From the NCBI GenBank assembly GCA_001873075.1, contig MNYL01000046.1:1-29676 (forward strand): a DNA stretch of 29,676 bases, written 5' to 3'. This stretch comes from Fibrobacteres bacterium CG2_30_45_31. GTDB lineage: Bacteria; Fibrobacterota; Fibrobacteria; Fibrobacterales; Fibrobacteraceae. The notes beneath the pieces were generated by a model. The model searched no databases, had not been told where the DNA came from, and worked only from the letters and a program-made list of their open reading frames with translations. A program made the translations under genes and the position numbers. Below are positions 2,545 to 29,676 of this stretch, in pieces. Each line of letters begins with the position of its first letter. Within the stretch, counting starts at the first letter, position 1.

Positions 2545-2547
2545 TTT

Positions 2548-2610
2548 GAAATTCCTTTGAGTCGTGATGCAGTTGGCAGACCGCATTCCGAATTTACTTG
2601 AAGGAATTTC
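2548..2610 (-). promoter_or_regulatory. 5'-UTR stem-loop sequestering the tnpA Shine-Dalgarno
   Basis: Perfect 10-bp inverted repeat GAAATTCCTT (2548-2557) / AAGGAATTTC (2601-2610), extendable by 3 further bp after 2 mismatches. In the mRNA the proximal arm AAGGAATTTC contains the SD (AAGGA), 8 nt before the ATG at 2544. This matches the known SD-occluding hairpin of IS200. Confidence 0.6.
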
Positions 2611-2784
2611 TTGTGTCACTAAGGATCGCCATAAGGCTTATACGGAACTACCCGCTCGTATCCCAGCTCCCTTCAAGCATCGCTTTAACTTCTGCAAAAG
2701 TAGAGCCAAAAACGCCGGGAATATAATGGAACGTCACCGTTCTTGTTGTCATTTTTCCTCCGATCAAAAAAAACGGGGTAAAAA

Positions 2785-3477: not shown

Positions 3478-3483
3478 GTTTCC

Positions 3484-5613: not shown

Positions 5614-5701
5614 AGCTCCTCCTGCATTTATTTTTAAGTCTAAAAGGATAATGCTCTTTCCCCTTAAAAGCTGAACCAGTTAAGCAACTGGTTTTTAATA
5701 T

Positions 5702-5878
5702 AAAAAGTTTCTTTGGCGTTTTCATTTCCAGTGCAGAATAGGGTGCATAAAAATTGTAAATCTTGACCCATCCGGCAATCTGCGCATGAACTGATTCAGG
5801 CGTATCCAGAGAGTTCTCGTACACGTAAGCCCGCTGGAGTACAGAAAGCGTCTTGGACTGTGTTAAATATGTCCAACT
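5702..5878 (-). pseudogene. Remnant of an IS3/IS481-type transposase (C-terminal end of the rve integrase core)
   Basis: 'KTLSVLQRAYVYENSLDTPESVHAQIAGWVKIYNFYAPYSALEMKTPKK' matches the conserved integrase-core tail (..wi..YN..RPHSAL...TP). No DDE core lies upstream, and the ORF runs into unrelated sequence. Confidence 0.6.
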
Positions 5879-6010
5879 ATTTGTCCGCACCCCCTTTTCG
5901 CATAGATTAGAAGATTGTCTTTGATTTAATTTCTTGGTCAAAATAGTACAAATTATGTTATTGTTACATTTATGGTCGCTGACATCTTTGATGAGAACCC
6001 GGGGTAGCAT

Positions 6011-8275: not shown

Positions 8276-8436
8276 ACCAGACAAAGGTTACACAAATGAA
8301 ACAAATAACTTTTATTTTTGACAATAATGTACTTACAAAATAAAAAAAAATAATATTGCCTGTTGAATGATCTTTTACTAACGTATTGCGAAAGGTTAGT
8401 TCTTAAATAGCTTGGCTAAACTAAAAATGAAATAGC

Positions 8437-8443
8437 AGGAGGG
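8437..8443 (+). promoter_or_regulatory. Shine-Dalgarno site (AGGAGGG) of the SIR2-like-TIR gene
   Basis: AGGAGGG lies 5 nt upstream of the ATG at 8449. It follows a 174-nt AT-rich intergenic region that contains TTGACA (about 8320), so the three-gene operon probably has its own promoter. Confidence 0.6.
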
Positions 8444-8448
8444 TCAAT

Positions 8449-9804: not shown

Positions 9805-9813
9805 GATGGAGCC

Positions 9814-13305: not shown

Positions 13306-13365
13306 TCCTGAATCGTGTGGCAGACTCCGCCATCAAACAGTTGATTATTAAAATTATGAGGATAT

Positions 13366-16300: not shown

Positions 16301-17961
16301 ACTCGGACAAAGTTCAGGGAATAAACGTTTCCACAAAGGAAGGAATTCTATCTTGGTCGAATGCTCTTCTAGTTGCTCCAAGGCCTCTTCAGGTTTCAAC
16401 AGAAGGAGATGACAATTATGATCAACTTGCTGGCGAATTGGGGGGATGGACGCTCAATCAATGGAATGTTCCAGAAGAATTTGAAAGGACTAAGAACTTA
16501 AGTTCACCGAAAGGACCCCTGACTCGAATGCTTTGTTGGCTGCAGGATACCAGTGAAACGCGAGATTTGTATACGGGAAGCAAGGATCCTTTGAAATCCT
16601 ATCTGAGTCAGTTGGTGCAGGGTAGTGAAAGAAACATTGAGCGTGCACTGGATATTCGCCCGGACTGCGTTCCGGCGTGGAAAAACTACTGGTTTTCACA
16701 GGCTCTGGATGTCGCCGAGAAACGATTTATGGGCTCAGTCACAGGAAAAAGCCGAGATGAATGGTTGAAGCGACGTCTGCAATGGGCCGGTTTAACTCCC
16801 GCCCAGAAACGCGCCTATCTGCAGGCAGATCCCGAAGGAATGCGCTTAGCAGATTTTCAGACCCGCGAGCTTTATACGAATCATCCAAACTCTGCATCAG
16901 CTTGGATGGAACGCGGAATTTTTCTGAAGCTTGCAAACGAAAATGTACAGGCTAAAGAGGTCTTGGAAAATGCCGCCAAACTGGATCCGAAGAATTCCGA
17001 GATAAAAAACGAACTGGTCGGACTCGAAACATCCCCTCAGGCCATCTCGTCTCTCCTTGCACAATCGCTACCCATGCTACAGAATGACGATTCTGCGACA
17101 GTGGAACGCATCTGCAATTATGCAGAAAAATTTTTGCCAAACTGGGTGATGGCAAACGGTGCTCTTCATACCGGGGAAAAACTGGATGAAATTCTTGCTT
17201 TGCTCAGGCAGAAGGTTAAGAGTTCTATCTCTTTTGACGACCAATTGAAGATTCAAATATTGGCCGAGAAAATGACTTCATTATTCTTCTATTTACCCGA
17301 AGGGCCCAAGTTATCCAATACCTTTAACCAAGGACTTCTGGATTTATTTGATCATAGCTCTCTCTCGGTTGCTTCCGAAAGCAGAAGGGCTATTCAATCA
17401 ATGCTTGCCTTCAATATGTTGTTGCAGAACCGAACGACTGAAAGTCTGAAGATATATGATGAGATTCATGCAGAATATCCTCTTGAAAAAGCCATTCTCT
17501 CTACAGGACGGGCTTACGCTCTTAGTTTGCAGGGAAACAATGCTCAAGCTGTTGGAATGCTCCGTGCCATCGTTTCCAATGGCGGCGACTTCACAGCGAT
17601 ACTGGCGCAGTCTATTCTTACGGATTTTGCCATTTTTCATTATCGTGGAATTGAACTGCCTTGCGAAAAGGAATTAAGAGAAGAAATCCTGAAGATGGCG
17701 CAACCTTCCCTGTCAGGAGGTTTAAATGTGGTGCAAGTCATTCCTCGGGGGCAGTGCGCAAAAATTGGAATTAAAGTCGGAGATCGCCTCACTTGGTATG
17801 ATGGTTATCCTGTGACGGACTTGCAGCAATTCATCTATGCAAGGCAAATGGATAAATTTTGGGAAAAAACAAATTCCCGGGAAATGCGTATCCTGCGTAA
17901 CGGGGAAATTTTTAAATTTACTGTCAATCCAGGCCTTGTGGGCTTAGGTTTAACACAGTAA
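13366..17961 (+). CDS. TIR - TM helix - tandem beta-propellers (WD40/PD40-like SPDG blades) - TPR-like helical region - PDZ
   Basis: TIR 'YDAFISYSRKDIEVAAWFQKEM...LRLFRDQTDLGV...LILLCSPHVL...YIDWEIREF' (about 13384-13845). TM 'WLLLAGAVILALSGLAIWALV' (13975-14034) after 'KERRRTMQR'. About 12-14 blades: 'FSPDGQSLL', 'LSPDGVHLA', 'FNPDGIHLA', 'FSHDGRRLA', 'FSPDGRFLV', 'FSPDGKRIL', 'FTPDGKYVITAGSDRMLKGWD' (about 14233-16380). Helical TPR-like region at about 16633-17655. PDZ 'VVQVIPRGQCAKIGIKVGDRLTWYDGYPV...NPGLVGLGL' (about 17713-17958). Confidence 0.85.
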   Translation: MSEQNQYDAFISYSRKDIEVAAWFQKEMEKLRVPKALPYPAGMEPLPRKLRLFRDQTDLGVRSNSFFEGLSANLAKSRDLILLCSPHVLQNNSEGLNYIDWEIREFIRIHGVEYAKNHILPVIIYGKIQSGDSREACIPTALNDLGVDFRQRNLPVLGSPEISRVSKNDKEHVLLQCLSYLARVETNIVDNRFQKERRRTMQRWLLLAGAVILALSGLAIWALVEKDKTSETLSESYFQEASRLIDEHQAGLALAYLAASMDSKNNNAAYQRFSGLMKNRSWLVQLDTLASSPHSGIHIAWSNRQEKEAVFSLEDSAQGKGTLSIYQLDPSRPPVSISVKNFRTGIFSPDGQSLLTLHGVAPEQICKRWNVSTGEFSDSLLLSDGSVPVFLSSSASYALLLTSDQKTIRLVSMKDGSIRFEQTVTSGWEWNKFAFDEKEKILAFGVKRELNFQHLNEMSASEFAFQTIDIASGSILAQIHGAGILSDWVLSPDGVHLAYSYSTGRPDDWLLVNQDLSSGKPSWTLPLKACQRLLFNPDGIHLAADLGTFGVEIHNVYRDSESKIHIDLSSPVKNWTFSHDGRRLAITTEQASLCVFNVRDGSEAVERRLLNTDVYGIQFSKTNRILTVNTGNGEKSFALQVSPVGVQTIMSKWSPSVLMNVFVEKNSSAFAFILGSYSSGTILEMHGMVDSFPDSIRQLKLSETPNCGAFSPDGRFLVLGSGKKTDENGTGQLDVYKISEGTLWQPQKWEKWVSEKAPFAVTQISFSPDGKRILVNSNTLQKAAQKALVYDMQALAKPVFSLNHGGTVSQAAFTPDGKYVITAGSDRMLKGWDIASGNMLWKQELESFPSALAISSQGKIACGMRLLHANGRVQIFAENGKPEWSSRVLRNGVNQLDFNGKGSLLGVAFFNREALIFDVSSGRIRSQDLVQEGDITSMRFWSDSDQDILCIGGKTENNLGFVEYWDPATSKKIGDITRHSDKVQGINVSTKEGILSWSNALLVAPRPLQVSTEGDDNYDQLAGELGGWTLNQWNVPEEFERTKNLSSPKGPLTRMLCWLQDTSETRDLYTGSKDPLKSYLSQLVQGSERNIERALDIRPDCVPAWKNYWFSQALDVAEKRFMGSVTGKSRDEWLKRRLQWAGLTPAQKRAYLQADPEGMRLADFQTRELYTNHPNSASAWMERGIFLKLANENVQAKEVLENAAKLDPKNSEIKNELVGLETSPQAISSLLAQSLPMLQNDDSATVERICNYAEKFLPNWVMANGALHTGEKLDEILALLRQKVKSSISFDDQLKIQILAEKMTSLFFYLPEGPKLSNTFNQGLLDLFDHSSLSVASESRRAIQSMLAFNMLLQNRTTESLKIYDEIHAEYPLEKAILSTGRAYALSLQGNNAQAVGMLRAIVSNGGDFTAILAQSILTDFAIFHYRGIELPCEKELREEILKMAQPSLSGGLNVVQVIPRGQCAKIGIKVGDRLTWYDGYPVTDLQQFIYARQMDKFWEKTNSREMRILRNGEIFKFTVNPGLVGLGLTQ

Positions 17962-18363: not shown

Positions 18364-18798
18364 TCTCTGAAATGAAAAAGGATTGCCGAGGGGTTGCTCT
18401 TTTTTAGGCTACATGTAGATCATCGAACGAGTATGGTTCATCAACAAAGACTGAGTACATTTTTCATATTTACGCGTAAAAAGTCAGGAAGTTCACATGT
18501 AACAACAATTGCACGTATTTCCAGCCTCAGCGGGGCAGAAATTCTCGCCTTATTAAGGCCCTATCCAGAGTCATGTCAGCCCATTCAGGCGTCGTCATCG
18601 CCGATGCCGGAGTTTCTGTCTCCAGGCGCATAAATGAAAGGAGCTCTATGGACATTGAGATCTACAACTGATAAAAGAAAACTGGATGACGCCCCTAAAA
18701 AAGAGTTATACTACCATGTAGATAAAAAATTAACTGGTTTCCTTAAAGCTATATTAAAAAATCAAGTTTCTTGTGAGCACATTGGGAGAGAGTGTGTT

Positions 18799-20181
18799 AT
18801 GAAAAAAATCATTTTATTGACATCAGACGGTCCGCAGGGCCACGATCTGGCAAAGCAGCTGGCGATATTGGCTCATCAGCAACAATTTGAGCTCACGCCC
18901 ATTTTCGGTTTTACGCTGACTGATTTCTTTTCGGGATTCATGAAGAAACGATTACAGATCATCGACATTTCCATGGACGAAGATCCGCTAGTCTATGACA
19001 AGGTTCATCCCATCCATACGCCCAATCATTTGTATGTCAGCAGGACCCACACTCCACTGAATTTCCGTCCCATGGTCATTCCCATCCGGCATGGAGAAGA
19101 ACTGATCAACGCCTTCCCGGAATTCGGAGAAAAGAATTCCAATGATGAGCTCAGCTTCTGGCTAGACCGGAAGCTTCCTGAATTCGTTCACCAAAGGCAG
19201 TCTTTTGTACCAATTATTGGACGTTTTCTGGACATGAAAAGAATTTCTGAAGAAAGAAAAAATGAGATTCGCAAGGAGGGCTCCATTTTTCTCAGCTATC
19301 GCAGTTCCGAAAATCAAAGCATCGCGACGTTGGCAAGTCAGATTGAATCAAAATATGGAAAGCGATGCCGATTTTTCGCACCCGGGGTCATCTCGCATGA
19401 GGCCATGAGCCGGATGCGTCGCTGGAATCTGCTTTCTCTTCTCGATCGGTATATACTGTCCGCAGACCAGATATGGATCTGTCTGAGCGAGGACTATTTC
19501 TATTCGTGGTGGACGTTCGGTGAATTCCTCATGGCTGTACATCGGCAGACAGCAAACGCCATCGGTCATAAACCTCTTCTCAAGAAATACCGGAACGGAG
19601 CTCTAGAAGAATGGCAGGAAACAGAATGGCCAGAGATCACGGAAGCGGAACACAGGCGTATCTCCAGATATTTTGCCTTCTGCGATAGTTTCCAGATGGG
19701 GCCGGAGGCCTTTATCTCCCACGAAGACATCCAGAACCTGAAGCTTAAATTTGCGGAAGGCTACTATCGTGATGATGTCTGGAAAAAAGACTTCTGGCTT
19801 AATCCCATAGTGGAATGCCCTGTATGCCGGAAACGTTCAGGCCCTTACAACAAAAGACCTATAGAAGAATTTCTCTGGCACGGTCAACAAAAGGAAGAGA
19901 ATCCCGCCCAACAAGGAATCGTCTACCGTGGCAACGGCATCATGGAGATCGACTATGCAGCCATGCCATCATTTCTGGATCAGGGAATCACTTGCCGGTG
20001 TGGTCATACTATCACACTGAAGAAAGGCCCCATGCAATACCTCCACGTTTTTCTTCCGCCCAAAAGTCAAGTTCCTTTTTCCGCAGCTCGGGAACTGGCC
20101 CGTAAATGGGAATTCCCGGAAGCATCGGTCATTGGAAACAATCTGATCGCGATACAGAGTTTTTTAATAAATGAAGACTAA
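18799..20181 (+). CDS. TIR-like domain protein with unknown N-domain and C-terminal Cys4-type zinc ribbon
   Basis: Preferred start is the ATG at 18799, with GGGAGAG 8 nt upstream. The ORF-track start at 18634 has no SD. TIR-like segment 'SIFLSYRSSENQSIATLASQIESKYGKRCRFFAP...QIWICLSEDYFYSWWTFGEFLMAV' (about 19279-19548). 'CPVC'...'CRCGH' at about 19816-20007. Confidence 0.6.
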   Translation: MKKIILLTSDGPQGHDLAKQLAILAHQQQFELTPIFGFTLTDFFSGFMKKRLQIIDISMDEDPLVYDKVHPIHTPNHLYVSRTHTPLNFRPMVIPIRHGEELINAFPEFGEKNSNDELSFWLDRKLPEFVHQRQSFVPIIGRFLDMKRISEERKNEIRKEGSIFLSYRSSENQSIATLASQIESKYGKRCRFFAPGVISHEAMSRMRRWNLLSLLDRYILSADQIWICLSEDYFYSWWTFGEFLMAVHRQTANAIGHKPLLKKYRNGALEEWQETEWPEITEAEHRRISRYFAFCDSFQMGPEAFISHEDIQNLKLKFAEGYYRDDVWKKDFWLNPIVECPVCRKRSGPYNKRPIEEFLWHGQQKEENPAQQGIVYRGNGIMEIDYAAMPSFLDQGITCRCGHTITLKKGPMQYLHVFLPPKSQVPFSAARELARKWEFPEASVIGNNLIAIQSFLINED

Positions 20182-20209: not shown

Positions 20210-20827
20210 ATGAACCTTTATTATAATAACAATGATAAAACGCCAAAACACAAGACATTCCTGAGTTTTCACCATAAGGACGAAGGCTATAGGGACAGGT
20301 TTGAACAAGAATATTCCGAGGACAGGGGCGATTATGTTTCTAGATCAGTAAAAGACGGAGACATTGATCCTACTTGGCCAACAGAAAGAATCCGGCAAAA
20401 AATCAGGGATGAATTCATTAGCGACGCTACTGTAACCCTTGTGCTGATCAGTCCAGATACTTGGAAACGCAAGCATGTGGACTGGGAAATCAGTTCCAGT
20501 ATCCGTGACACAAAAAATAATCCAAGGAATGGTCTGCTGGGAATTCTGCTTCCAAATTATCAATATACAATGGATGGATGCAGTTATGCGGATATAAAGC
20601 GCACAGAGTCCGGCCGTCTTTATAATCCATTCACAATTCCGCCACGCTTGTTTGAAAACGTCCAATGCGGTTATGCCAAAATCTATTCCTGGCCCGCAAC
20701 GTACAACGACGTGAAAAAATGGATTCATGACGCCTATCTGGGAAAAGAAATAAAAAATCCAAGCAATGCATATCCGCTGTTTTCCAAGAACCGGAATGAC
20801 GATCAAAGATACTGGCAAAAGGAATAG
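20210..20827 (+). CDS. ThsB-like TIR protein (DUF1863 / MTH538 TIR-like family)
   Basis: 'KTFLSFHHKDEGYRDRFEQEY' and 'ATVTLVLISPDTWKRKHVDWEISSSI...GLLGILLP' follow the DUF1863/ThsB pattern (FiSf...D ... S..t..s.WV.WEI ... iigv.l). AGGAGA SD 7 nt upstream. 28-nt gap to the previous gene. Confidence 0.75.
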   Translation: MNLYYNNNDKTPKHKTFLSFHHKDEGYRDRFEQEYSEDRGDYVSRSVKDGDIDPTWPTERIRQKIRDEFISDATVTLVLISPDTWKRKHVDWEISSSIRDTKNNPRNGLLGILLPNYQYTMDGCSYADIKRTESGRLYNPFTIPPRLFENVQCGYAKIYSWPATYNDVKKWIHDAYLGKEIKNPSNAYPLFSKNRNDDQRYWQKE

Positions 20828-20855: not shown

Positions 20856-22856
20856 ATGACTGAATTTCGACAGCCGTTATCCATACATTTCGTATGGCAT
20901 CCGGGCGACAGCGAACAACTAGAGAACATAATTGACTTCTGCAGCAAGTCCCTGAAAAGGGACCCAGAAAAGCCCTTTTCCCGTTCCATCAGCATTCCCT
21001 TGTTCTTTCTGACCTCCGAAGGCAAAAATCCTCCAGAAATGTGTCTTTACAAAGCCGAAAAGACAATCGTCTTTGTCTTCATAAGCAAGCGTATCGTCGC
21101 CGACGATGCCTGGACAGAATTCATTGAAAAACTGAAAGGAAAATGCGATGCCATCGTCCCCATTGCCCTGGATTCCACAGCATTCAACATAGACAATTCA
21201 CTGAACTCATACAATTTCATCCGGGCATATGAATATGAAGCGGCTTTCTATCGGGAAAGAATCCTGATTGCCGTCGCTCATGAGATATACCGTCTGGCCC
21301 TGAACGAATCCCTGAAAGAAATGAACTTGGGAAAAGATTCCGCAGTCCGCATTTTTCTGAGCCATGCAAAAGATGCCGGACCAGGGATTTCGATCGCGGA
21401 AACACTAAAAAACTTTCTGGATCAGTCCGTAATGCGGAATTTTTTTGATGCATTCGACATTGCACCAGGGTACTGTTTCGATGCAGAAATCGAAGCCCAC
21501 ATCAAAGAATCAACATTAGTGGCGATCCACTCAGATCCTTATTCAAGCAGATACTGGTGCCAACGGGAAATAGGATGCGCCAAAGCAGCCGACAGGCCCA
21601 TGATCGCCGTCGATGCTCTGAATGAATATGAAGACAGAAGATTTCCGCTGGCGGCCAATATTCCAGGAATCCGCGTGCGTTGTGAAAAAGAAGAAAAAAT
21701 TTCAGAGTCCGATGTTCTTCGGATCATGATTTGTGCGCTGCTGGAAACGATAAGATTCTTTTATTCCAGAAGGCTGCTGTCCGCTTATCAGGAATCAGGC
21801 TGGATTCCCAAGGGCGCTATCCTCCTGCAGCGTCCTCCTGAACTTGCCGATGTCCAAAAATACAGCGGAGGCTTTCCACAGACAAAAGAAATATATTATC
21901 CAGAACCGACAATTTTTCAGGAAGAAGCCGATGCCTTCAAAAAAATAGGATTTACCGTTCTGACACCTCTCTCAGCACATCGCAGATGCAAGCCACTGAA
22001 GATAGGCCTATCCTTTTCGGAACCAGACAAAAATTCTTTGACAACGATTGCGCAAAGAGCAATCCACCTCCAGCAGCTTTCACAGGATCTTGCGAGAAAC
22101 CTAATCACAGGAAACAACCGATTGATCTATGGTGGCGATTTGAGACCCAAGGGCTTTACTGAATGCATTTATTTTGAAGCTTTGGCAACGCAGACACGGC
22201 TGCGTTCAAATGAGCAATACCTGACAAACTATCTTGCTTGGCCGTTGTACCTGAATCCGCAGGAACCCCTTGTCGACTGGAAAGCTCGTTTCAGGGACAT
22301 CGCCGTTACAAAAACCGTGAAATATCCTGACGATGTGGATGCTCTTATCTTCGATAAAGAGCATTTTCTTCCACCTGTGACCAAAGAAAACTGGTATGTC
22401 TGGAGCCGTTGCCTGACACAGATGCGCAACGAAATGATAAAAAACTGCGATCTGCGAATTTGTGCAGGCGGACGGCTCACGGAATACAAAGGAAAGATGC
22501 CCGGAGTCCTGGAAGAAATTTTCATCGCTTTTAAAGAAAAAAAGCCACTATTCCTTCTCGGTGGATTCGGGGGAGTAACAGAAAGCTTCTGCCAGTATAT
22601 GGAAATAGGGAAGGCTCCAGACAATATCAAAAAAGAATGGCAAATTGGGCACAATCTTGGATACAGGGAACTTCTGGATTTCGCAGACCAGTTTGGCATG
22701 CATTATGCAGATACCTATAATCTTCCCAAATTGAATTTCGATATGCTGAACAACGGATTGGATGAGAATGACAACAAAAAATTGTTTCACACGACATTCA
22801 CTGATGAAATTATTTTCTTGATTCAGAAGGGAATAGAGAACAAATTTTCTCATTGA
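20856..22856 (+). CDS. TIR-like + TIR + C-terminal SLOG (SMF/DprA-LOG-like) domain protein
   Basis: Start ATG at 20856 (AGAGGA upstream) is preferred over 20766, which overlaps the previous gene. TIR-like 1: 'LSIHFVWHPGD...KTIVFVFISKRIVADDAWTEFIEKL' (about 20874-21185). TIR 2: 'VRIFLSHAKDAGPGISIAETLKNFL...NFFDAFDIAPG...TLVAIHSDPYSSRYWCQREIGCAK' (about 21345-21635). SLOG: 'LIYGGDLRPKGFT', 'ICAGGRLTEYKGKMPGVLEEIFIAFKEKKPLFLLGGFGGVTE' (about 21993-22610). These Gly-rich loops resemble the ThsA/LOG SLOG domains. Confidence 0.7.
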   Translation: MTEFRQPLSIHFVWHPGDSEQLENIIDFCSKSLKRDPEKPFSRSISIPLFFLTSEGKNPPEMCLYKAEKTIVFVFISKRIVADDAWTEFIEKLKGKCDAIVPIALDSTAFNIDNSLNSYNFIRAYEYEAAFYRERILIAVAHEIYRLALNESLKEMNLGKDSAVRIFLSHAKDAGPGISIAETLKNFLDQSVMRNFFDAFDIAPGYCFDAEIEAHIKESTLVAIHSDPYSSRYWCQREIGCAKAADRPMIAVDALNEYEDRRFPLAANIPGIRVRCEKEEKISESDVLRIMICALLETIRFFYSRRLLSAYQESGWIPKGAILLQRPPELADVQKYSGGFPQTKEIYYPEPTIFQEEADAFKKIGFTVLTPLSAHRRCKPLKIGLSFSEPDKNSLTTIAQRAIHLQQLSQDLARNLITGNNRLIYGGDLRPKGFTECIYFEALATQTRLRSNEQYLTNYLAWPLYLNPQEPLVDWKARFRDIAVTKTVKYPDDVDALIFDKEHFLPPVTKENWYVWSRCLTQMRNEMIKNCDLRICAGGRLTEYKGKMPGVLEEIFIAFKEKKPLFLLGGFGGVTESFCQYMEIGKAPDNIKKEWQIGHNLGYRELLDFADQFGMHYADTYNLPKLNFDMLNNGLDENDNKKLFHTTFTDEIIFLIQKGIENKFSH

Positions 22857-22906: not shown

Positions 22907-23530
22907 TTACTTCCCATTATAACGTTCAAAATCTCTCTGAAATTTGAAGGGGGCTCCAATATATCCTAGACTCCCCATAGATTCTAACCAAGTAACAAAA
23001 TTTAAAATCAAAGCATCATTTTGTACCTTTTTCTGCCCAATTCCCTTATGTATAAATACTTGATATTTTGAAGGCACTCGAACCGCATCTTTGCCCCAAT
23101 ACCAATATTTCTGTGAAATCAGCACATACTTGCTCCGCAAATCTCGAGTATAATTATCTTTATTTACGAGCCCGTTCTGCAAACTGTGGTGTGAATCTTC
23201 TTGAATAAAAAATTTTGTCCTTTCATCAGTATGATATATGTTGTCACCATATCTCTGCTTTTTACTGCCATTCATTACAGGTCTTTTATAAAAAAAGCGC
23301 GAATCATTCCAATATTGATCAAACGTCAATTTTCCCTGCACCTGCATTGCATAAACAAGTCGTCCCTTCATTGAGCCACCCTTGGCGGCGGAACCAAAGC
23401 CCAAAATCCAATCACCCGAATTAGCATGCTCTCTAATAAATGGCTTACAGGTAGCCAACGTACAATAGGGAGGAAACGGATTAGGTGCAAACCCATAATC
23501 CCTTGTGATGATATAGCTGAAAAGGACCAT
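22907..23530 (-). CDS. Nmad2-like (nucleotide-modification-associated domain 2) protein
   Basis: 'YIITRDYGFAPNPFPPYCTLATCKPFIREHANSGDWILGFGS' matches my recollection of the Nmad2 signature (D.GFAPNPF..CTLA.CKP.IR...GDW). Start at Met37 of the track ORF (23530) avoids overlap with the upstream gene. An earlier start is not excluded. Confidence 0.5.
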   Translation of the reverse strand: MVLFSYIITRDYGFAPNPFPPYCTLATCKPFIREHANSGDWILGFGSAAKGGSMKGRLVYAMQVQGKLTFDQYWNDSRFFYKRPVMNGSKKQRYGDNIYHTDERTKFFIQEDSHHSLQNGLVNKDNYTRDLRSKYVLISQKYWYWGKDAVRVPSKYQVFIHKGIGQKKVQNDALILNFVTWLESMGSLGYIGAPFKFQRDFERYNGK

Positions 23531-23549
23531 TCTAAGCCTGCAAAAAAAA

Positions 23550-24017
23550 CTAACATGTTTCTCTTGGCGAAGCAACGGAGGGACGTGCATTCCCTGTACT
23601 GTCCTGCCAAATATTTGCTCCTTCAATAGCGGATGCAATTGAGTCTAAATTCCATGCCACCAAAGCATCACCGTAATCATTTAGCGCGTTAGGGACGTCG
23701 GAGTCAGTTGCTCCTCGTAAATAAACACCTATTATGCGTTTCGTTCCACTCTTGGCAGCATATTCAAGCTCCCAATTAACCCAATCCCGCTTCGCTGTTT
23801 TAGGGCTTATAAGGACCACAATTTTTCCAGCCCATTCTATCTGCCTTCGAAGAAGCGATTTTATGTAGTCTTCATTATTGGCATTGTTCGGCTCGCTTTC
23901 TACAATAGAGCTGTCGCGTATATCATAGTCTTGTCTTGATAGCAATTCTTTGAATTTTGGAATAGCATCCTCATCGCCTCCATAATGGGAAATAAATAGA
24001 TTAATTTTCTGACTCAT
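23550..24017 (-). CDS. TIR-like protein (DUF1863/ThsB-like fold), translationally coupled to the TS homologue
   Basis: 'INLFISHYGGDEDAIPKFKELL' and 'KIVVLISPKTAKRDWVNWELEYAAKSGTKRIIGVYL' match the DUF1863 pattern. Its ATG overlaps the stop of the upstream gene (ATGA at 24014-24017). Confidence 0.7.
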   Translation of the reverse strand: MSQKINLFISHYGGDEDAIPKFKELLSRQDYDIRDSSIVESEPNNANNEDYIKSLLRRQIEWAGKIVVLISPKTAKRDWVNWELEYAAKSGTKRIIGVYLRGATDSDVPNALNDYGDALVAWNLDSIASAIEGANIWQDSTGNARPSVASPRETC

Positions 24018-25024
24018 AATGTTTTCGCTCCTTTTTTATAAAATGCATCCCATCTATTCCAAATCTCCAAGTACAATGGGTTTGTGCAACGACTCAAGAT
24101 ATCTTCTTTTAAGCGAAGATATTCTTTTTTCCTTGCCACATATGCCGAAATAATGAGCATAATGTTGTTGTAGGCTTGGCTTTCTGAGTCAAGGCTGGAA
24201 ATCGTTTCTAAATGAGTTTCATCTGGATCTTCAGTGACAATACGTTTCATTCTCTTATAAATTTTTTCAACAACAGAGTCAAAATAACATTTAGAAACAG
24301 ACAAAGAATCGGTATTTTTACTGAACTTATTAGAATAAATTTTCATATTGTCAAAATCGTTCTCATATAGATGTAAACTGTCGCTATAATGAGCATAAGT
24401 GCCGACTTCAAGTCCCAACCATCCAGCGAGTATCTCCTGCATACTTGTAAATTGTACAAAATTATAAGGAAGGCCTCTAAAGGCATCGTTGCTCCGCATG
24501 ATTTGAGTCCACTCCAATCTGTGTTCCCGGACTTTTAATAAAGAACAAATGTTACACGGAATATCTGCACTATTAGGCACCCCGGTGTCTTTTGGCAAAT
24601 CTTTCTCTGGATCCCATATCAATATTACCATTTGTCGTGATTCCGGCTTGTTATGTAAAATATTAAAGGCTTTCTCTAATTGATCCATTCCGAAATTATG
24701 ACGAATTCTATGGCCATAGGCGCCATGATAATGCACATCATTTCCTGAATATTTATATAAATTCGGATTCCAATAGTTAACTATTTCTGCAATATCACTG
24801 CCACTTAAAATCCAGATCAATTCGGCTAAGGCATAAGAGATGCTCATTGGCGGCATTCTATTGGAAACCCATTTTTCTTTTGGATTTTCAATTGAGAATA
24901 AGACATGTAGAAACTCATATGTACTGCCGGAACGACTAGGTACTTTCTTATTCAACGCTTTTAAGCGTTCTGCAGCCGACATCCATACCTCATTTGCCGT
25001 TTCCCCAGAACACAATATTGCCAT
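24014..25024 (-). CDS. Thymidylate-synthase-fold enzyme (ThyA / dUMP hydroxymethylase-like)
   Basis: 'DIPCNICSLLKV' aligns with ThyA 'PPCHAFFQFYV' (catalytic Cys at nt 24554-24556). 'QIMRSNDAFRGLPYNFVQFTSMQEILAGWLGLEVGTYAHYSDSLHLYEN' aligns with E. coli '[50 protein letters not shown]'. 'YGHRIR' aligns with 'YG.QWR'. Confidence 0.8.
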   Translation of the reverse strand: MAILCSGETANEVWMSAAERLKALNKKVPSRSGSTYEFLHVLFSIENPKEKWVSNRMPPMSISYALAELIWILSGSDIAEIVNYWNPNLYKYSGNDVHYHGAYGHRIRHNFGMDQLEKAFNILHNKPESRQMVILIWDPEKDLPKDTGVPNSADIPCNICSLLKVREHRLEWTQIMRSNDAFRGLPYNFVQFTSMQEILAGWLGLEVGTYAHYSDSLHLYENDFDNMKIYSNKFSKNTDSLSVSKCYFDSVVEKIYKRMKRIVTEDPDETHLETISSLDSESQAYNNIMLIISAYVARKKEYLRLKEDILSRCTNPLYLEIWNRWDAFYKKGAKTL

Positions 25025-25028
25025 TTTC

Positions 25029-26690
25029 TTACTCCTTTATTAAATCATTTATGCCCCATTTAGGAGGATAAAAATATGAGATCGGTCCCTGGAGGCTGGG
25101 CCTGAACTGTTGCTTTATTCTTTTCCTTCCATGACTGGGCGATTCCTCCGGATATGCAACTCTGGAATATTTGTCTATTTCACAAAACAGATTCTGGCAG
25201 TCAATTAACTGCAAAGGCCGACCCCATAATGTTTGAAATTTCAATCCACGTGAATCAAATTCTTTTTCCTGTGAAGCAGACATATATCGAACAATATCTT
25301 CTTCAGGACAGCGGCAAGAATGATTAAAACACTTCTGTATCCCTTGATGCGCTCCGGGGCCGACAACGACAAAAGACATCTCGTCAAAATTGCACAATTG
25401 GCTATAATTTATATCGATGGCATACTGAAAGGCTAAAAATTTTCCAATGGTCGGATATGAAAGCAATATTTCATAAAGATCCTTCAGTGTTTTTGCCGCA
25501 CCTATCTTACCTGAAATTTTATCCTTCATCATATATTCCATGAGTTTCAAATTATTCTGGTGTTTTCTTTTAAATCCAAAAGCACTCCCTCCTGAAGGCA
25601 TGATATAAGCGGCTGAATATATTTTTTCCTTCTTGAGCAGCATTGATGTCAATATTTTATCATATTCCGCATAATTGTAATTTTTAAATGATATTTCGCT
25701 TAAATTTCTTTCCAGTTCGCACCACGTATCAATGCGATTAAACATTTTAAACAGGATAATTCTAAAAAACATATCTTCCGGAGTAAAATCATTCTCACTT
25801 TTGTATATGGCATTCTTAATTAAAAACTGGCTGACCCTGTCTGAAGCTCTATAGGCATTCGTAAATTTGTACTTCTGTAAAATTTTATCATCAGTCCAAG
25901 GAAAAGGTGCCCCTTGAAGCCGTGCAAAAAAGATTTGTTGCCGTTCAAAGGCAAATTTCCAATAAGCATCATATATCACTGATGGTTTAAAAATGATTCT
26001 GTTTATATAAACTGCCTTTTGAGCAAGCTTTTGATCCAATCCATTTTCTCTTAAAGACAGGGGCAAGGGATCGATTTGTCCACATTCATTTAAAATGATT
26101 TTCAATGCGATGGATACGGCTTGAGCCAACGCTTTATTATTATTTATAATCGTCAATTTCTTTTTGATTTCCGACTTTTGTGATAACTCTTGATAGCATT
26201 TCAAAATCATTTGTGTTTTTTCTGGAGTATAATCGCTAATGATACTGGCCCTTTTTATCCAAAAATATCCGGATACCTGTAACCCTTTCATGATGGCTTT
26301 TTCTGGAGAGACAATATCTTTCACGACCGATCTACTTATTCCTTCCGCAATACCATATACATATGTGGATAGCCATGATCGATCCAAAAGAACAATCTTT
26401 CCCGCCCGCATGTCTGGGATAATATGTCTATAGATATTTTCTATATGCGCCGCAATATGCAATATTTGCAGACTTACTGGATTGATCGGGTTGTTGAAAT
26501 AATTCTTCTGATGGTGATGAATATCATAAACAAGAGCGCCTAATGTTTGGGGTTCTCGACCAGGAAAACTATAAGAAGAGCACGGAAGACCATAATTTTT
26601 TAATTTATCCACCAATTCTGAAACAATGGTTGTTTTCCCTACATGATCTATCCCTTCAAAAACAAACAATTTTCCCTGCATGCTTTCCAT
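25029..26690 (-). CDS. Fusion of a Tmk-like dNMP kinase with a 5-hmdU-DNA-kinase-helical / aGPT-Pplase-type domain
   Basis: Start at Met18 (26690; AGGGAAA upstream). P-loop 'LFVFEGIDHVGKTT' and 'IVLLDRSWLSTYVYG' (the DRY/S motif of thymidylate kinases). C-terminal about 320 aa contain 'FERQQIFFARLQGAPFPWTDDKILQKYKFTNAYRASDRVSQFL'. I recall that block from the helical domain of 5-hmdU DNA kinases and alpha-glutamyl/putrescinyl-thymine pyrophosphorylases. That part of the assignment is from memory. Confidence 0.65.
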   Translation of the reverse strand: MESMQGKLFVFEGIDHVGKTTIVSELVDKLKNYGLPCSSYSFPGREPQTLGALVYDIHHHQKNYFNNPINPVSLQILHIAAHIENIYRHIIPDMRAGKIVLLDRSWLSTYVYGIAEGISRSVVKDIVSPEKAIMKGLQVSGYFWIKRASIISDYTPEKTQMILKCYQELSQKSEIKKKLTIINNNKALAQAVSIALKIILNECGQIDPLPLSLRENGLDQKLAQKAVYINRIIFKPSVIYDAYWKFAFERQQIFFARLQGAPFPWTDDKILQKYKFTNAYRASDRVSQFLIKNAIYKSENDFTPEDMFFRIILFKMFNRIDTWCELERNLSEISFKNYNYAEYDKILTSMLLKKEKIYSAAYIMPSGGSAFGFKRKHQNNLKLMEYMMKDKISGKIGAAKTLKDLYEILLSYPTIGKFLAFQYAIDINYSQLCNFDEMSFVVVGPGAHQGIQKCFNHSCRCPEEDIVRYMSASQEKEFDSRGLKFQTLWGRPLQLIDCQNLFCEIDKYSRVAYPEESPSHGRKRIKQQFRPSLQGPISYFYPPKWGINDLIKE

Positions 26691-26899
26691 ATACGTTTCC
26701 CTAATCGCCTTCACAAATTCGCAGTGAGCTCCCTGTAGCATCCAAATGTATCTATAATATAACTTCTAAAAAGACTTTTATTGCCACCGAAATGTGCCAT
26801 AAATTCAAATCTTTTCAAAGAAAAATTTACACCCATCCATTTGTGATACTTCAGCCGTTTATATATCCCCAAAAGGCTTTTTGAAAACATAGAGGTGCT

Positions 26900-27076
26900 A
26901 TGGATTTCTTTGACTTTGACGATATTTTTGAAAAATATGATCCTTTCATTTATTCGGATTGGTTTGAACGACAGAATATTTCTGATATGCTTAGAAGGGC
27001 TGCGGATTGGATTCCACTTCATAGGGAACTTCTGAATGCATTTTATGATGACTGGATAAATGAACAAAAGGAATGA
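26900..27076 (+). CDS. Possible small acidic protein (58 aa), below the ORF-track cutoff
   Basis: ATG at 26900 with AGAGG 4 nt upstream. Product MDFFDFDDIFEKYDPFIYSDWFERQNISDMLRRAADWIPLHRELLNAFYDDWINEQKE has a protein-like helical composition. It lies antisense to the compositionally odd 130-aa ORF 26711-27103. Confidence 0.3.
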   Translation: MDFFDFDDIFEKYDPFIYSDWFERQNISDMLRRAADWIPLHRELLNAFYDDWINEQKE

Positions 27077-27330
27077 AGACCCTATTATTCTAGACCAGTT
27101 CATAATCTTCTCATATCACGACAGAAAGGAACTCGCTAGACTGCAAAAAGAACACAGGGACAATAATGACGAAGATAGGACACATGGAAAATGAAAGGAA
27201 AAAGAAGACAAAAGTGATTTTCTTTTTGTAGGAATCAAAGCATAAGAAAGAATGGGAAGAGTGAGCTGGGCGAAAAAAGAGTAATCAGAATAACAACAAT
27301 GAAAAAACGCATAGCCCACTCCACCTGAAC

Positions 27331-27828
27331 TTATTCCTGAATTTCGATTCTTTTCAAAAAAGTTCTTTTGTTTCCTAGTGGGAAATCTTCTGCTCGTAAT
27401 TTGCCGTAATAGACAAGATTGAAATAGTTTCTGCTGCCAATGGCGCAGATCCACGATGACTCAAATACTTCATCTTCTGTTTTGTCCCCTATGCATTCAT
27501 CTGGAATTATTTGTTTGACGGCTGGGTCCAACTCATCTTCAGGCTCCCCAAAATAACCGAGGGCCTTAGAAAGTTTCTGTAACTTTCCATAGTCCCAATA
27601 GATATGATCAAAATAGAGGGGTGATTCGTAATAGGCAAGCAGGACATCATGCAACATCTTTCCGAAGTCTTCCCTTAGCCCCAAAATAATGGGTCTTTCG
27701 ACAGAAGGTCTGTCGTCTTTCAGTACCAGAATGGATGGCTGATTCTCGTATTCAATGATTGATAAACAGATTTCGAAATGATTGCGACTGAATGCAATCA
27801 GGGTTGTCTCGGGGGAAATAGTGTTCAT
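27331..27828 (-). CDS. Hypothetical protein (165 aa), no recognised family
   Basis: Start at the second ATG (27828). The AAGAGAGAG SD and the sequence from this Met onward are conserved in the decayed paralogue at 1511-1611, whereas the frame of the first ATG is not. Acidic protein ending 'KRIEIQE'. Confidence 0.55.
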   Translation of the reverse strand: MNTISPETTLIAFSRNHFEICLSIIEYENQPSILVLKDDRPSVERPIILGLREDFGKMLHDVLLAYYESPLYFDHIYWDYGKLQKLSKALGYFGEPEDELDPAVKQIIPDECIGDKTEDEVFESSWICAIGSRNYFNLVYYGKLRAEDFPLGNKRTFLKRIEIQE

Positions 27829-28077
27829 TATAAACTCTCTCTTTCCCATTGTTTATAATATTCCACCTCAAAAAAAATTAGTTAAAGACGCACGAAAAGC
27901 ATTGGCGGAATAGACAAAGTGATGTTTTAACTTTCACAGAAAGCCAATTATGAACGAAGGTAATTTTTCAGAAAAATTCTGGAATAAGAAACTTTTCGTT
28001 AAAAAATTGGGGGTAGGGAAATATGCCGACGAATTAGTCTTATCTATGATTCTTAACATTCATCTTTAGTTCCAACA

Positions 28078-28110
28078 TTTTCTGAATTTTCTGAATTTTC
28101 TGAATTTCTG
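28078..28110. repeat. Tandem repeat, 9-nt unit TTTTCTGAA x 3.6
   Basis: Direct reading gives TTTTCTGAA at 28078-86, 28087-95 and 28096-104, then TTTCTG. It lies 47 nt downstream of the abiEii stop. Confidence 0.9.
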
Positions 28111-28156
28111 TGATTAATGCGGTTTCATTAGGTAACTGCATCTTGTATTCTGAAGC

Positions 28157-29080
28157 CTACAAAGTCCATCCCTTCGATGGAATCCAGTGCGTAAATGGGA
28201 ATGATTCCTGTTCTGATACCAAATTCAATACTGGTAGAATAAATTGTGCAATTTCACTAATGGCATCCTGTAAAGATCCCACTGTTTCCAAGGGCTTGGA
28301 CTTTTTCACAAAACCATGCCATTGACTTTGCTTCGATAAATCAGACCAAAACTCTTCCGTCAATGCAATTGGGGGCTTAGTGGGAAAACTTGTTTTGCGC
28401 CGTTCAAAAGTACTTTTGATTGCGTCAGAAAATTGTGTTTGTTCAAATTCAAACATGCGGGATAAAAGACAAAGATCATAAAAATCTTTCATGCGACTAT
28501 TCGCGATGCCGAGCTTAACCATTGCTTCTATCTTTTCTGCGGCAAGTGTATAATGCGAATAACCCCTGATGTGAGCTTTTGGAAAATCAAGAATGGATGG
28601 GAAATCAATAAATTCAGCTTTAGGCACAACGGCATCACCAAAGCCAATATCAATCTGAATGGGGATGCGAGCCTTTCCAAGCATACCAACCATAGTGATC
28701 CGTACACCATTATATTCCTGCCATTCTTTTATTGGTTCTACTTTCAAAGAACTGATTTGAAACTGAACGCCATCATCCTCATAAGGATCTGAAATCACTT
28801 CGGCAAAAACAGTATGGAGTCGTTCAATGCTGGGATCACCAAAGCCAAGAAGATCAACGTCCTTTGTGACTCGGAAGTTTTGTCCTTTCCAAACCAGGAA
28901 CATGCTTGCACCTTTAAGAATGAACTGATTCACATACTTGGATTGACTCAAGCGGTAAAGTAACCGTTCCAATCCATACCTCGTCAGCAGCAATTCAAAA
29001 TCTGCTCCAAGTTCCTTTGATTTACGCGTAAGCTGTACACGAACAAAATGAGCAGCATTGGGTTGGGTGGGTGTACTCAA
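28157..29080 (-). CDS. abiEii: AbiEii/AbiGii-family nucleotidyltransferase toxin (DUF1814)
   Basis: 'ELLLTRYGLERLLYRLSQS...FILKGASMFLVW', 'TKDVDLLGFGD' and 'IPIQIDIGFGDAVVP' match DUF1814. TTG start overlaps the abiEi stop (TTGA, 29077-29080). Confidence 0.85.
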   Translation of the reverse strand: MSTPTQPNAAHFVRVQLTRKSKELGADFELLLTRYGLERLLYRLSQSKYVNQFILKGASMFLVWKGQNFRVTKDVDLLGFGDPSIERLHTVFAEVISDPYEDDGVQFQISSLKVEPIKEWQEYNGVRITMVGMLGKARIPIQIDIGFGDAVVPKAEFIDFPSILDFPKAHIRGYSHYTLAAEKIEAMVKLGIANSRMKDFYDLCLLSRMFEFEQTQFSDAIKSTFERRKTSFPTKPPIALTEEFWSDLSKQSQWHGFVKKSKPLETVGSLQDAISEIAQFILPVLNLVSEQESFPFTHWIPSKGWTL

Positions 29081-29676
29081 ACGATAGCCTCCATATAGGG
29101 TTTCATGACTTTCAGAACTCTACAAACTTTTGCCGCATCAGTGATTTCGTCCATGGTGGCTTGTTTATTTTTCCATACTTCACGCAAGGCTTCAATTGCC
29201 ACGTCAAGGCCAACCTTGCTTCGGAATTTAAAACAATCAGCAACCGTTCTTGCCGGAGAATAAATCTGGAAACGGAAAGGCCCCACAAGATGCTCTTGCC
29301 TTCCAACGGAATACGTTTTTGGATCTACAATGGTGTAGTTGATGGGAGGATACTGTACTTTGATTTTTCTCCTACCTCGGGGAAGGGTGATCCACACTTC
29401 GTGAGGAAGTTGCGTAGTTATTCCATAAACGCTCAGAGCAGACAGCAGAGAAACAGTACATTCACCCACTTGGCGAACCGCCTCAATAATGGAACTGTGC
29501 TCTATGGCGTAAAACCCATCCTTATCAATAAACAATCCCTTCGCTGATTTTTCTAAAAACCCCTGAGCATAGAGCTTATAGAGGTATCTTCTAGAAACGC
29601 CAAGACTTTCTGCCTCCGCCACTGAGATAAACCCATTTTGCTTAATTTGCTCTAGAATAGTCTCTTTTTTATTCAT
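29077..29676 (-). CDS. abiEi: AbiEi-family antitoxin / transcriptional regulator (type IV TA)
   Basis: N-terminal wHTH 'GFISVAEAESLGVSRRYLYKLYAQGFLEKSAKGLF' and C-terminal 'SPARTVADCFKFRSKVGLDVAIEALRE'. The start codon is the last triplet of the window, so the promoter/operator lies outside it. Confidence 0.85.
   Translation of the reverse strand: MNKKETILEQIKQNGFISVAEAESLGVSRRYLYKLYAQGFLEKSAKGLFIDKDGFYAIEHSSIIEAVRQVGECTVSLLSALSVYGITTQLPHEVWITLPRGRRKIKVQYPPINYTIVDPKTYSVGRQEHLVGPFRFQIYSPARTVADCFKFRSKVGLDVAIEALREVWKNKQATMDEITDAAKVCRVLKVMKPYMEAIV

Follow-up and report, generated by a model that had tools for sequence, protein, structure and literature searches.

The closest described relative of the genes analysed here is DS-4 ('NTTI'), an Escherichia coli transcription unit (NZ_QOYB01000018.1, 32107-36002) from the DefensePredictor study, which appeared as a preprint (10.1101/2025.01.08.631726, bioRxiv January 2025) and then in Science in 2026 (PMC13092281, doi 10.1126/science.adv7924). 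DS-4 encodes a thymidylate synthase (TS)-fold protein, a deoxynucleoside monophosphate (dNMP) kinase, an HMUDK_hel protein, a TIR protein labelled Thoeris ThsB_Global and a hypothetical protein that is Nmad2, all in one tight operon, and on a plasmid by itself it conferred protection on E. coli (PMC13092281). Of the 10 domains that this paper presents as newly validated in defence, two are 5-hydroxymethyluracil kinase and thymidylate synthase; NMAD appears in it solely as a domain label in a figure legend, and no mechanism is stated for DS-4 (PMC13092281). Our literature searches found no mechanistic work on DS-4-type systems. Here we compare with DS-4 and other known systems a minus-strand operon at 22907-26690 of a 29,676-nucleotide (nt) stretch, hereafter the window, which is contig MNYL01000046.1 of the metagenome-assembled genome (MAG) Fibrobacteres bacterium CG2_30_45_31 (GCA_001873075.1). 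We consider it highly likely that this operon belongs to an anti-phage system of the DS-4 kind.

Two other groups of enzymes are related to parts of the operon. Phage clusters for thymidine hypermodification are represented by gp51-gp58 of Pseudomonas phage M6 (PMC5889632, PMC8989533), in which gp51 is ADDT, gp52 a pyridoxal phosphate (PLP) enzyme, gp53 a radical S-adenosylmethionine (SAM) enzyme, gp54 HMUDK_HMUD1 (PF18748), the verified DNA kinase for 5-hydroxymethyl-deoxyuridine (5-hmdU), gp55 HMUDK_hel, gp56 Nmad5 and gp58 the TS. M6 makes its modified base starting from 5-hmdU. In the mildiomycin pathway the partner of MilA is the N-glycosidase MilB, which releases 5-hydroxymethylcytosine (5hmC) from 5-hydroxymethyl-CMP (hmCMP) by hydrolysis (PMC5175136, PMC4081090).

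The listing of open reading frames (ORFs) and a direct reading of the DNA gave four consecutive genes, A to D, at 22907-26690, with lengths in amino acids (aa):

25029-26690, minus strand: gene A, 553 aa counted from the ATG at 26690, a start that agrees with the N-termini of homologues; the ORF also permits an upstream ATG at 26741
~26076-26690, minus strand: Tmk-like P-loop dNMP kinase domain of gene A (Pfam PF02223 Thymidylate_kin, 6e-13, residues 11-186)
~25146-25976, minus strand: HMUDK_hel domain of gene A (Pfam PF18723, 1.7e-102, residues 239-515)
24014-25024, minus strand: gene B, 336 aa, TS-fold enzyme
23550-24017, minus strand: gene C (TIRc), 155 aa, ThsB-type TIR
22907-23530, minus strand: gene D, 207 aa from the ATG at 23530, Nmad2 protein

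Gene A ends in ...AAGGAGTAA and is followed by a 4-nt spacer (gaaa) and the ATG of gene B, with AAGGAG immediately 5' of that start; the end of gene B, ...ACATTATGA, overlaps the ATG of TIRc as a stop/start ATGA, and direct reading places 19 nt between TIRc and Nmad2. An initial annotation, made from the letters alone, had given these same spacings, and its four domain calls also agree with Pfam (Thymidylate_kin plus HMUDK_hel, Thymidylat_synt, ThsB_TIR and Nmad2), whose matches are all unambiguous and well past chance level; the profile searches it had proposed match the C-terminal domain of gene A to HMUDK_hel and the 22907-23530 product to Nmad2. Genes A-D are one translationally coupled operon and a real bacterial gene set. 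An Rfam scan of the window returned 0 matches, and promoter and terminator scans gave counts at background level. Separated from gene A by 640 nt, a 172-aa ORF (27331-27849, minus strand) lies upstream in the same orientation and has no Pfam or PADLOC match; the intergenic stretch between them, 26691-27330, has no Rfam match.

We compared the four proteins with DS-4 by BLASTP, using the protein sequences of Table S8 of PMC13092281. Nmad2 was the most similar (53% identity over 150 aligned residues, E 5e-53), and the TIR proteins aligned over their full length, C-terminal Cys included (36% identity, 4e-30). The HMUDK_hel domain matched DS-4C (WP_087900470.1; 30% identity over 308 aa, E 7.7e-28) and gene B matched DS-4A (WP_087900468.1; 27% identity over 273 aa, E 1.6e-23), with catalytic and specificity residues in common. 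As in the window, a ThsB-type TIR (DS-4D) is directly followed by Nmad2 (DS-4E). In contrast, DS-4B (WP_087900469.1) is a separate DNMK-like kinase (PF21448, T4 gp1-like) without BLAST similarity to the window kinase, which is Tmk-like and fused to HMUDK_hel, although each is a P-loop dNMP kinase and their functions appear analogous. The gene order also differs, being kinase-TS-TIR-Nmad2 in the window and TS-kinase-HMUDK_hel-TIR-Nmad2 in DS-4, and the window, from a Fibrobacteres host, also carries a TIR-SLOG gene and another ThsB-like TIR beside the operon. The initial annotation had suggested that the operon could make either an anti-phage poison or signal or a mark on self DNA, and that either role would be new; because this type of system had already been published as the validated defence system DS-4 (bioRxiv January 2025, Science 2026), the claim of novelty fails, while a probable defensive role now has experimental backing from the homologous E. 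coli genes (PMC13092281).

To assess recurrence of the gene set, we gathered two samples of 80 loci each (numbered with the prefix L), one from genomes around the kinase gene and one from metagenomes around Nmad2, and labelled their ORFs by similarity to the window proteins as queries. Where a metagenome Nmad2 locus extended 500 nt or more upstream, a TIRc orthologue (E 1e-24 to 1e-71) lay directly upstream of Nmad2 in 68 of 70 cases. This count excludes chance adjacency of the TIR gene, which we had entertained and rejected. It bears out the earlier view of the TIR gene as an integral part of the operon and shows TIRc and Nmad2 to be obligate partners. Of the 41 Nmad2 loci flanked by 4 kb or more on each side, termed well-flanked, 37 had HMUDK_hel and 40 a TS, MazG+MazG_C or radical-SAM gene. 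The closest relatives (~69% identity) keep the A-B-C-D order in differing genomic contexts, one of them near BREX genes, and the gene set is widespread, occurring in many phyla and also on plasmids.

Some Nmad2 loci carry additional genes. On plasmid pP742404 of Gloeothece citriformis (L174, 114-4660), the stop of a patatin phospholipase gene, annotated 'CBASS cGAMP-activated phospholipase', overlaps the start of HMUDK_hel, and MazG, TIR and Nmad2 follow. A 224-aa family, U0, with an 'HPSYGG'-like motif was seen in MazG-type Nmad2 loci (L121, L126, L143, L149, L155, L161, L163 and L168-L170); its assignment as similar to uracil-DNA glycosylase was dropped, there being no Pfam or PDB match.

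The kinase-anchored loci (L001-L080) also revealed a second, commoner operon type built on the same kinase-HMUDK_hel gene without TIRc-Nmad2, of which we found no description in the literature searched. Its order is an acyl-carrier-protein (ACP)-like gene, XRE, IrrE/ImmA (Peptidase_M78), a gene for a ~270-aa protein and kinase-HMUDK_hel, then TS, MazG+MazG_C or radical SAM (e.g. L010, ~7000-12700), often with a dCTP-deaminase-like gene and AcpS added. The ~270-aa protein had no Pfam match, and its reading as TS-like was dropped for want of BLAST or Pfam support. ImmA was present in 43 of the 57 kinase loci without Nmad2 and in 5 of the 23 with it (p = 1.3e-5), and the alternative partners of the kinase gene are enzymes of the deoxynucleoside triphosphate (dNTP) pool, namely MazG+MazG_C (28/80 loci) and dCTP-deaminase-like proteins (17/80). 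Since TIRc-Nmad2 replaces the XRE/IrrE regulatory switch upstream of the same kinase gene, the analogy suggests that it serves sensing or activation, as the XRE/IrrE pair does; if so, kinase-HMUDK_hel with TS, MazG or radical SAM would be the executing, nucleotide-directed arm.

Gene A has at least 7952 homologues. In its AlphaFold2 (AF2) model the two domains are joined by a low-confidence linker (pLDDT < 50 at residues 205-232), and the N-terminal domain has the thymidylate-kinase fold (target-normalised TM-score up to 0.85 in the model search), with an intact P-loop and a DR-x-x-x-S-T-x-x-Y motif. Its score against the NCBIfam dTMP kinase equivalog is below the cut-off (48.3 vs 83.25 bits); 'thymidylate kinase' is the label that homologues carry in their source records. 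Assignment of the kinase domain as a phage-type 5-hydroxymethyluracil DNA kinase (5-HMUDK) was rejected, as it matched Thymidylate_kin only and had no BLAST similarity to M6 gp54.

The helical domain of gene A resembles M6 gp55 (23% identity, E 1.7e-15). HMUDK_hel is the former aGPT-Pplase clade 1, an older name that persists in some phage records, and homologues in 487 phage records adjoin TS/pyrimidine hydroxymethylase and DNA polymerase genes. The 'aGPT-Pplase-type' domain of the initial annotation is thus present as the clade-1 family, but no profile match to aGPT-Pplase2/ADDT was found in the cassette, and none of the four proteins has BLAST similarity to M6 gp51; for gene A itself we rejected aGPT-Pplase2/ADDT on the lack of a Pfam match at E <= 1 and of similarity to M6 gp51. 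Searches of the PDB found no sequence relative of HMUDK_hel, and no fold match was obtained, the full-length gene A model giving solely thymidylate kinases in its top 50.

Gene B matches Pfam PF00303 Thymidylat_synt (1e-24) and falls below every NCBIfam TS equivalog cut-off (89.6 vs 174.55 and 58.9 vs 108.35 bits for the best models). Its best PDB match is the CMP hydroxymethylase MilA (5e-26), with the best true TS at 3e-14, and it shares 27% identity with M6 gp58 (E 5.7e-25). With residue roles transferred from work on MilA (PMC5175136), the nucleophile Cys157 as well as Arg130, Ser178, His218 and Tyr220 were conserved in 43 of 43 orthologues, a set that includes DS-4, while Asn188 was conserved in 42 and Glu68 in 41. 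Arg130 and Ser178 (deoxyribose) and Asn188 (uracil) form a deoxyribo-uracil signature, on account of which the predicted substrate is dUMP. Three features favour hydroxymethyl as the likelier product: the closer similarity of gene B to hydroxymethylases, its C-terminal extension past the core shared with TS and its association with HMUDK_hel. Gene B is therefore probably, judging from these residues and relatives, a dUMP 5-hydroxymethylase.

TIRc matches Pfam ThsB_TIR (PF08937, 4.5e-21) and, over its full length, the PADLOC ThsB model PDLC00418 (2.6e-50). A profile of 15 orthologues searched against the PDB matched, among natural proteins, TIR/ThsB structures only (8wcf, 8fz9, the ThsB1 'cyclic ADP-D-ribose synthase' 9b7d, BcThsB 6lhy, MTH538, AbTIR and SARM1), with no chain of nucleoside deoxyribosyltransferase (NDT), MilB or DNPH1 at E <= 10. 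The argument of the initial annotation from a fold shared with NDT enzymes thus found no sequence support: by sequence TIRc is a ThsB-type TIR, not a deoxyribosyltransferase, and the latter reading was kept solely as part of a rival explanation. Glu83, of the catalytic type, is invariant in 27 orthologues, and a Cys that follows a conserved W..x-D-G motif (window 23550-23555) is the last residue or at most 3 residues from the end in 26 of 27 sequences. The protein is acidic (isoelectric point (pI) 4.9).

Nmad2 (Pfam 4.4e-69) belongs to a family of at least 2769 members, and in the best 120 matches it is the sole Pfam domain of proteins that are all ~200-230 aa long. It is strongly basic (pI 9.7), as gene A is also basic, and has invariant polar and Cys/His residues, for example C23, C28, H114 and H115, with which the C-terminal Cys of TIRc could possibly share a metal site or have a covalent role. 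No sequence relatives were found in the PDB, PHROGs, NCBIfam or PADLOC. Foldseek searches with the AF2 model (pLDDT 87.8) gave weak yet coherent PDB matches to ASCH, EVE, YTH, McrB-N and the EVE-HNH nuclease VcaM4I, and BFVD matches to ASCH, EVE and DUF3850; the fold is predicted from the model to be PUA-like (ASCH/EVE-like), akin to modified-base readers and enzymes. Nmad2 had been taken as a mark of phage origin, a view at odds with its distribution: it occurs in 0 of 50,697 phage records and at 6 loci among 2.9 million viral contigs (IMG/VR), was found on 17 plasmids, has no PHROG family and is unrelated to M6 Nmad5 (hhalign probability 0.3%, on which that relation was rejected). Nmad2 is essentially cellular and near-absent from viruses.

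Two plus-strand genes that converge on the cassette carry the components by which the window exceeds DS-4:

20210-20827, plus strand: second ThsB-type TIR, 205 aa (ThsB_TIR PF08937, 3e-15; PADLOC ThsB matches), just upstream of the TIR-SLOG gene
20856-22856, plus strand: TIR + SLOG cluster-2 protein (LD_cluster2 2.6e-59, TIR_2 2.4e-9); the ORF opens at 20766, with a probable start near 20856

The stop codons of the TIR-SLOG gene and the cassette are 50 nt apart. TIR-SLOG orthologues (E 1e-165 to 1e-30) adjoin TIRc-Nmad2 in L042, L022, L075, L078, L073, L080, L024 and L046, and one more, in L015, lies ~20 kb from a TIRc match. Orthologues of the TIR-SLOG protein and the 205-aa TIR occur beside TIRc-Nmad2 in Pedobacter, Victivallales, Oscillospiraceae, Cytophagales, Bacteroidetes, Acidobacteriota, Dehalococcoidia and Phycisphaerales, often contiguous and on the same strand, as in L078 (A 2029-3072, B 3083-4087, C 4080-4550, D 4504-5181, TIR-SLOG 5205-7118). 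In the kinase-anchored loci, SLOG cluster 2 was found in 8 of 23 with Nmad2 and 1 of 57 others (p = 1.2e-4), and the 205-aa ThsB-like TIR in 7 of 23 and 0 of 57, respectively (p = 7.7e-5). In the 41 well-flanked Nmad2 loci, 13 had an orthologue of the 205-aa TIR and 19 a SLOG-domain protein.

The same position is elsewhere held by other SLOG proteins: SLOG cluster 3 alone, TIR+STALD or canonical ThsA (SIR2+STALD), the last of which directly adjoins TIRc-Nmad2 in L138, L144 and L115. L138 has ThsB-like TIR, ThsA, TIRc, Nmad2, HMUDK_hel and TS on one strand within 5.9 kb, and L115 (5059-12003) has two TIRc-Nmad2 pairs, one after Dcd, HMUDK_hel and TS and the other on the opposite strand with canonical ThsA directly after it. 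Variable sensor-effector proteins around a constant core are the pattern of signalling-type defence systems. The initial annotation had treated these neighbours as a separate Thoeris-like module, which they probably are not, as they recur with the cassette across phyla; the 20210-22856 genes probably belong to the same system and make it a six-gene unit. Within it, the TIR-SLOG gene is a probable SLOG-sensor/TIR-effector arm and the 205-aa TIR a probable additional sensor TIR.

The wider setting is a defence island, as had been proposed, with TIR-rich genes, the ThsB-like TIR, the TIR-SLOG gene and AbiEii/AbiEi around the cassette. Further features of the island are:

8449-9804, plus strand: SIR2_2+TIR_2 protein, 451 aa (domain-level PADLOC matches only)
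9814-13305, plus strand: nSTAND1 NTPase, 1163 aa (Pfam)
13366-17961, plus strand: TIR-WD40-TPR protein, 1531 aa (N-terminal TIR_2 weak, below threshold; WD40 and TPR repeats)
28157-29676, on the other side of the cassette: AbiEii and a probable AbiEi partner

The co-oriented trio at 8449-17961 looks like a separate STAND/TIR conflict system; PADLOC called no known system there. A 515-aa protein (18634-20181, plus strand) directly upstream of the 205-aa TIR gene has a faint TIR_2 match (E 0.0086), and homologues of it were found in 0 of the 80 kinase-anchored genome loci, so that it is probably outside the conserved system. At the island edge lies a 754-aa protein (6011-8275, plus strand) whose sole Pfam or PADLOC match is a C-terminal RyR domain (1.1e-20), and at 354-1169 (minus strand) a Fib_succ_major protein (Fibrobacter succinogenes major paralogous domain, 2.7e-27), which fits the Fibrobacteres origin. 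A Pfam scan that covered the 17 larger ORFs of the window found no phage structural, replication or DNA-polymerase domain; to that extent the reported absence of phage genes stands.

We favour, with moderate confidence, the explanation that the operon is a divergent DS-4-type member, extended here by the 20210-22856 genes and working as follows. The obligate TIRc-Nmad2 pair would sense infection and signal, TIRc using NAD+ through Glu83 in the manner of ThsB-type proteins, and the basic, PUA-like Nmad2 reading a nucleic-acid or nucleotide cue or receiving the TIR product. Gene B would divert dUMP to 5-hydroxymethyl-dUMP, which the Tmk-like domain would phosphorylate towards the triphosphate of 5-hmdU (5-hmdUTP), such that dTTP synthesis would be starved and replicating phage DNA loaded with 5-hydroxymethyluracil (5-hmU). 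The HMUDK_hel domain would act on 5-hmU-containing DNA, as is thought for its phage counterpart, and SLOG-domain proteins, where present (here TIR-SLOG), would respond to the TIR signal and deplete NAD+, like ThsA in Thoeris. We put the chance that TIRc-Nmad2 is a ThsB-like sensing and signalling module, rather than a biosynthetic enzyme pair, at about even, and regard the exact three-step scheme as tentative and, in its full detail, unlikely.

Several observations weigh against this explanation. Whether gene B makes a methyl or a hydroxymethyl product is not decidable from sequence, and the fold matches of Nmad2 are weak (best E 0.005-0.02, TM-score 0.35-0.56). The kinases differ in type, Tmk-like in the window and DNMK-like in DS-4, and the window kinase lies outside the phage DNA kinase family. 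M6 gp55 was dispensable for the first modification step, glycine transfer onto DNA, in lysate reconstitution (PMC8989533), which leaves a DNA-level role of the helical domain unproven. How the host would avoid 5-hmdU in its own DNA is not explained by the scheme. The recorded DS-4 phenotype is weak and for phage lambda only: the sole row in Table S7, marked as replicated, gives smaller plaques and a -log efficiency of plating (EOP) of 0.93, or ~9-fold lower plating (PMC13092281). DS-4 also works without a SLOG protein, so the core must act alone, and the co-occurrence statistics rest on loci that are not phylogenetically independent. Finally, GC content is 0.36-0.41 in window 23000-29000 compared with 0.43-0.52 over most of the remaining window, and that of the cassette (0.36-0.43; genes A and B 0.36-0.37) is below that of the TIR-SLOG gene (0.45). 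The difference suggests that, in this genome, the low-GC segment with the cassette and AbiE may have arrived separately from the TIR-rich genes of the plus strand, and that the two halves may have been joined recently.

The pair could alternatively be a new enzyme couple that acts on a modified pyrimidine and not on NAD+ alone, which we regard as improbable. Nmad2 may flip out 5-hmU or 5-phosphomethyl-U in phage DNA, with TIRc ADP-ribosylating or excising the base, or TIRc may make an ADP-ribose (ADPR) conjugate of a 5-hydroxymethyl-pyrimidine that is the true ligand of the SLOG effectors. Either version, if true, would tie hypermodification chemistry directly to Thoeris-type immune signalling.

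As to explanations of the operon as a whole, the one that survives best after the DS-4-type reading, improbable as we hold it, is a small-molecule pathway like those for mildiomycin (MilA/MilB) or bacimethrin (BcmA-D), with TS-fold hydroxymethylation of a pyrimidine nucleotide, a TIR acting as N-glycosidase or base-exchange enzyme on this nucleotide instead of NAD+, and a kinase that phosphorylates the product, the free modified base or nucleotide being a toxin or the immune signal. Cleavage of N-glycosidic bonds is common to TIR and NDT enzymes. MilA, to which gene B is closest among solved structures, acts with the N-glycosidase MilB. The operon resembles MilA/MilB and BcmA/BcmB in its logic of a TS-fold hydroxymethylase followed by an N-glycosidic-bond enzyme, and the variation of effector-like genes round a constant core (SLOG proteins, the L174 patatin) is typical of signalling systems. 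The ThsB_Global-labelled UniRef50_A0A1G2M309, moreover, matches Nuc_deoxyri_tr2 and DUF1863 in the DefensePredictor HHpred table (PMC13092281). However, the TIRc profile shows no sequence relation to NDT-fold enzymes, and gene B has Arg130, Ser178 and Asn188 where MilA and BcmA have Lys, Ala and Asp (Lys133, Ala176 and Asp186, the ribo/cytosine residues, in MilA). The kinase is a Tmk-type nucleoside monophosphate (NMP) kinase, not ThiD-like, and the genes lie in a defence island rather than an antibiotic gene cluster.

Pure depletion of the nucleotide pool is, in our assessment, a poor prospect. Here the TS-fold enzyme, the kinase and, in relatives, MazG or dCTP-deaminase-like enzymes would drain dUMP, dTTP or dCTP and so block phage DNA replication; the modified base would be irrelevant and TIRc-Nmad2 a mere switch. 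Defence by dCTP deaminases and dGTPases is an established precedent, the enzymes that pair with the kinase gene in other loci break down dNTPs, as counted above, and XRE/IrrE control of the second operon type fits inducible toxic enzymes. Depletion leaves unexplained, however, the universally conserved HMUDK_hel and the nucleotide-building kinase fused to it, and the radical-SAM variants misfit it.

We find it very doubtful that the operon hypermodifies thymidine in DNA, whether to mark the host's own DNA or to alter that of the phage. TIRc and/or Nmad2 would then stand in for ADDT and finish the reactions on 5-hmdU or 5-phosphomethyl-dU within DNA. The neighbourhood does parallel M6 gp54-gp58, in the TS (27% identity to gp58), HMUDK_hel (23% to gp55), an adjacent P-loop kinase, a nearby Nmad protein and dUMP as the likely substrate, and phage HMUDK_hel homologues have TS/hydroxymethylase and DNA polymerase genes beside them. 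The invariant C23, C28, H114 and H115 of Nmad2 would lie in a PUA-like fold of the base-flipping kind, and gene A and Nmad2 are basic. Unlike M6, however, the window cassette has no ADDT/aGPT-Pplase2 (PF18724, none at E <= 1), PLP or radical-SAM enzyme and no phage polymerase; its kinase is Tmk-like rather than HMUDK_HMUD1, with no similarity to gp54, its Nmad2 has no relation to Nmad5, and the module, which includes a TIR gene, is cellular, not viral. No ADDT, HMUD1-type DNA kinase, nuclease or restriction partner was found in the cassette or among recurrent families, and a self-mark would need genome-wide replacement of T in the host. DS-4 gave protection alone on a plasmid, and TIRc is ThsB-type and also pairs with ThsA. 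The description of the cassette as a phage hypermodification gene set was thus overstated: it shares with phages a neighbourhood of kinase, helical domain, Nmad and TS, without the enzyme that installs the hypermodification.

That the genes are housekeeping thyA and tmk, or a decayed prophage fragment beside an unrelated TIR gene, is suggested by the Pfam names Thymidylate_kin and Thymidylat_synt and the 'thymidylate kinase' labels of homologues, but is already contradicted by the co-occurrence data and has a negligible chance of being right, as both proteins are far below NCBIfam equivalog cut-offs with the kinase fused to HMUDK_hel, the set recurs with TIRc-Nmad2 across phyla and contexts, the scanned ORFs lack phage structural or replication domains and Nmad2 is so rare in viruses.

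Returning to the DS-4-type reading, we compared the signalling genes with Thoeris. Pfam and PADLOC class both TIRc and the 205-aa TIR as ThsB-type, as the PDB profile does for TIRc, and the neighbouring protein has a SLOG domain, the kind that ThsA uses to sense the TIR signal. That protein differs from ThsA in carrying TIR rather than SIR2 and SLOG cluster 2 rather than STALD, and PADLOC made no ThsA call. To our knowledge, no described Thoeris type has a TIR that is the obligate partner of Nmad2 and is associated with nucleotide-modifying enzymes. The gene set joins two fields that have been studied apart, phage-style pyrimidine modification and TIR/SLOG (Thoeris) signalling, and a non-canonical dNTP fed into phage DNA, or a modified-nucleotide signal, would if true be a new defence principle. 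The operon of this window is another member of an already reported system. Beyond the literature found, our comparison adds to that system the obligate TIRc-Nmad2 pairing, its alternation with XRE/IrrE and the link to ThsA/SLOG proteins, together with the dUMP signature of the TS-fold enzyme and the hint of a PUA-like fold in Nmad2.

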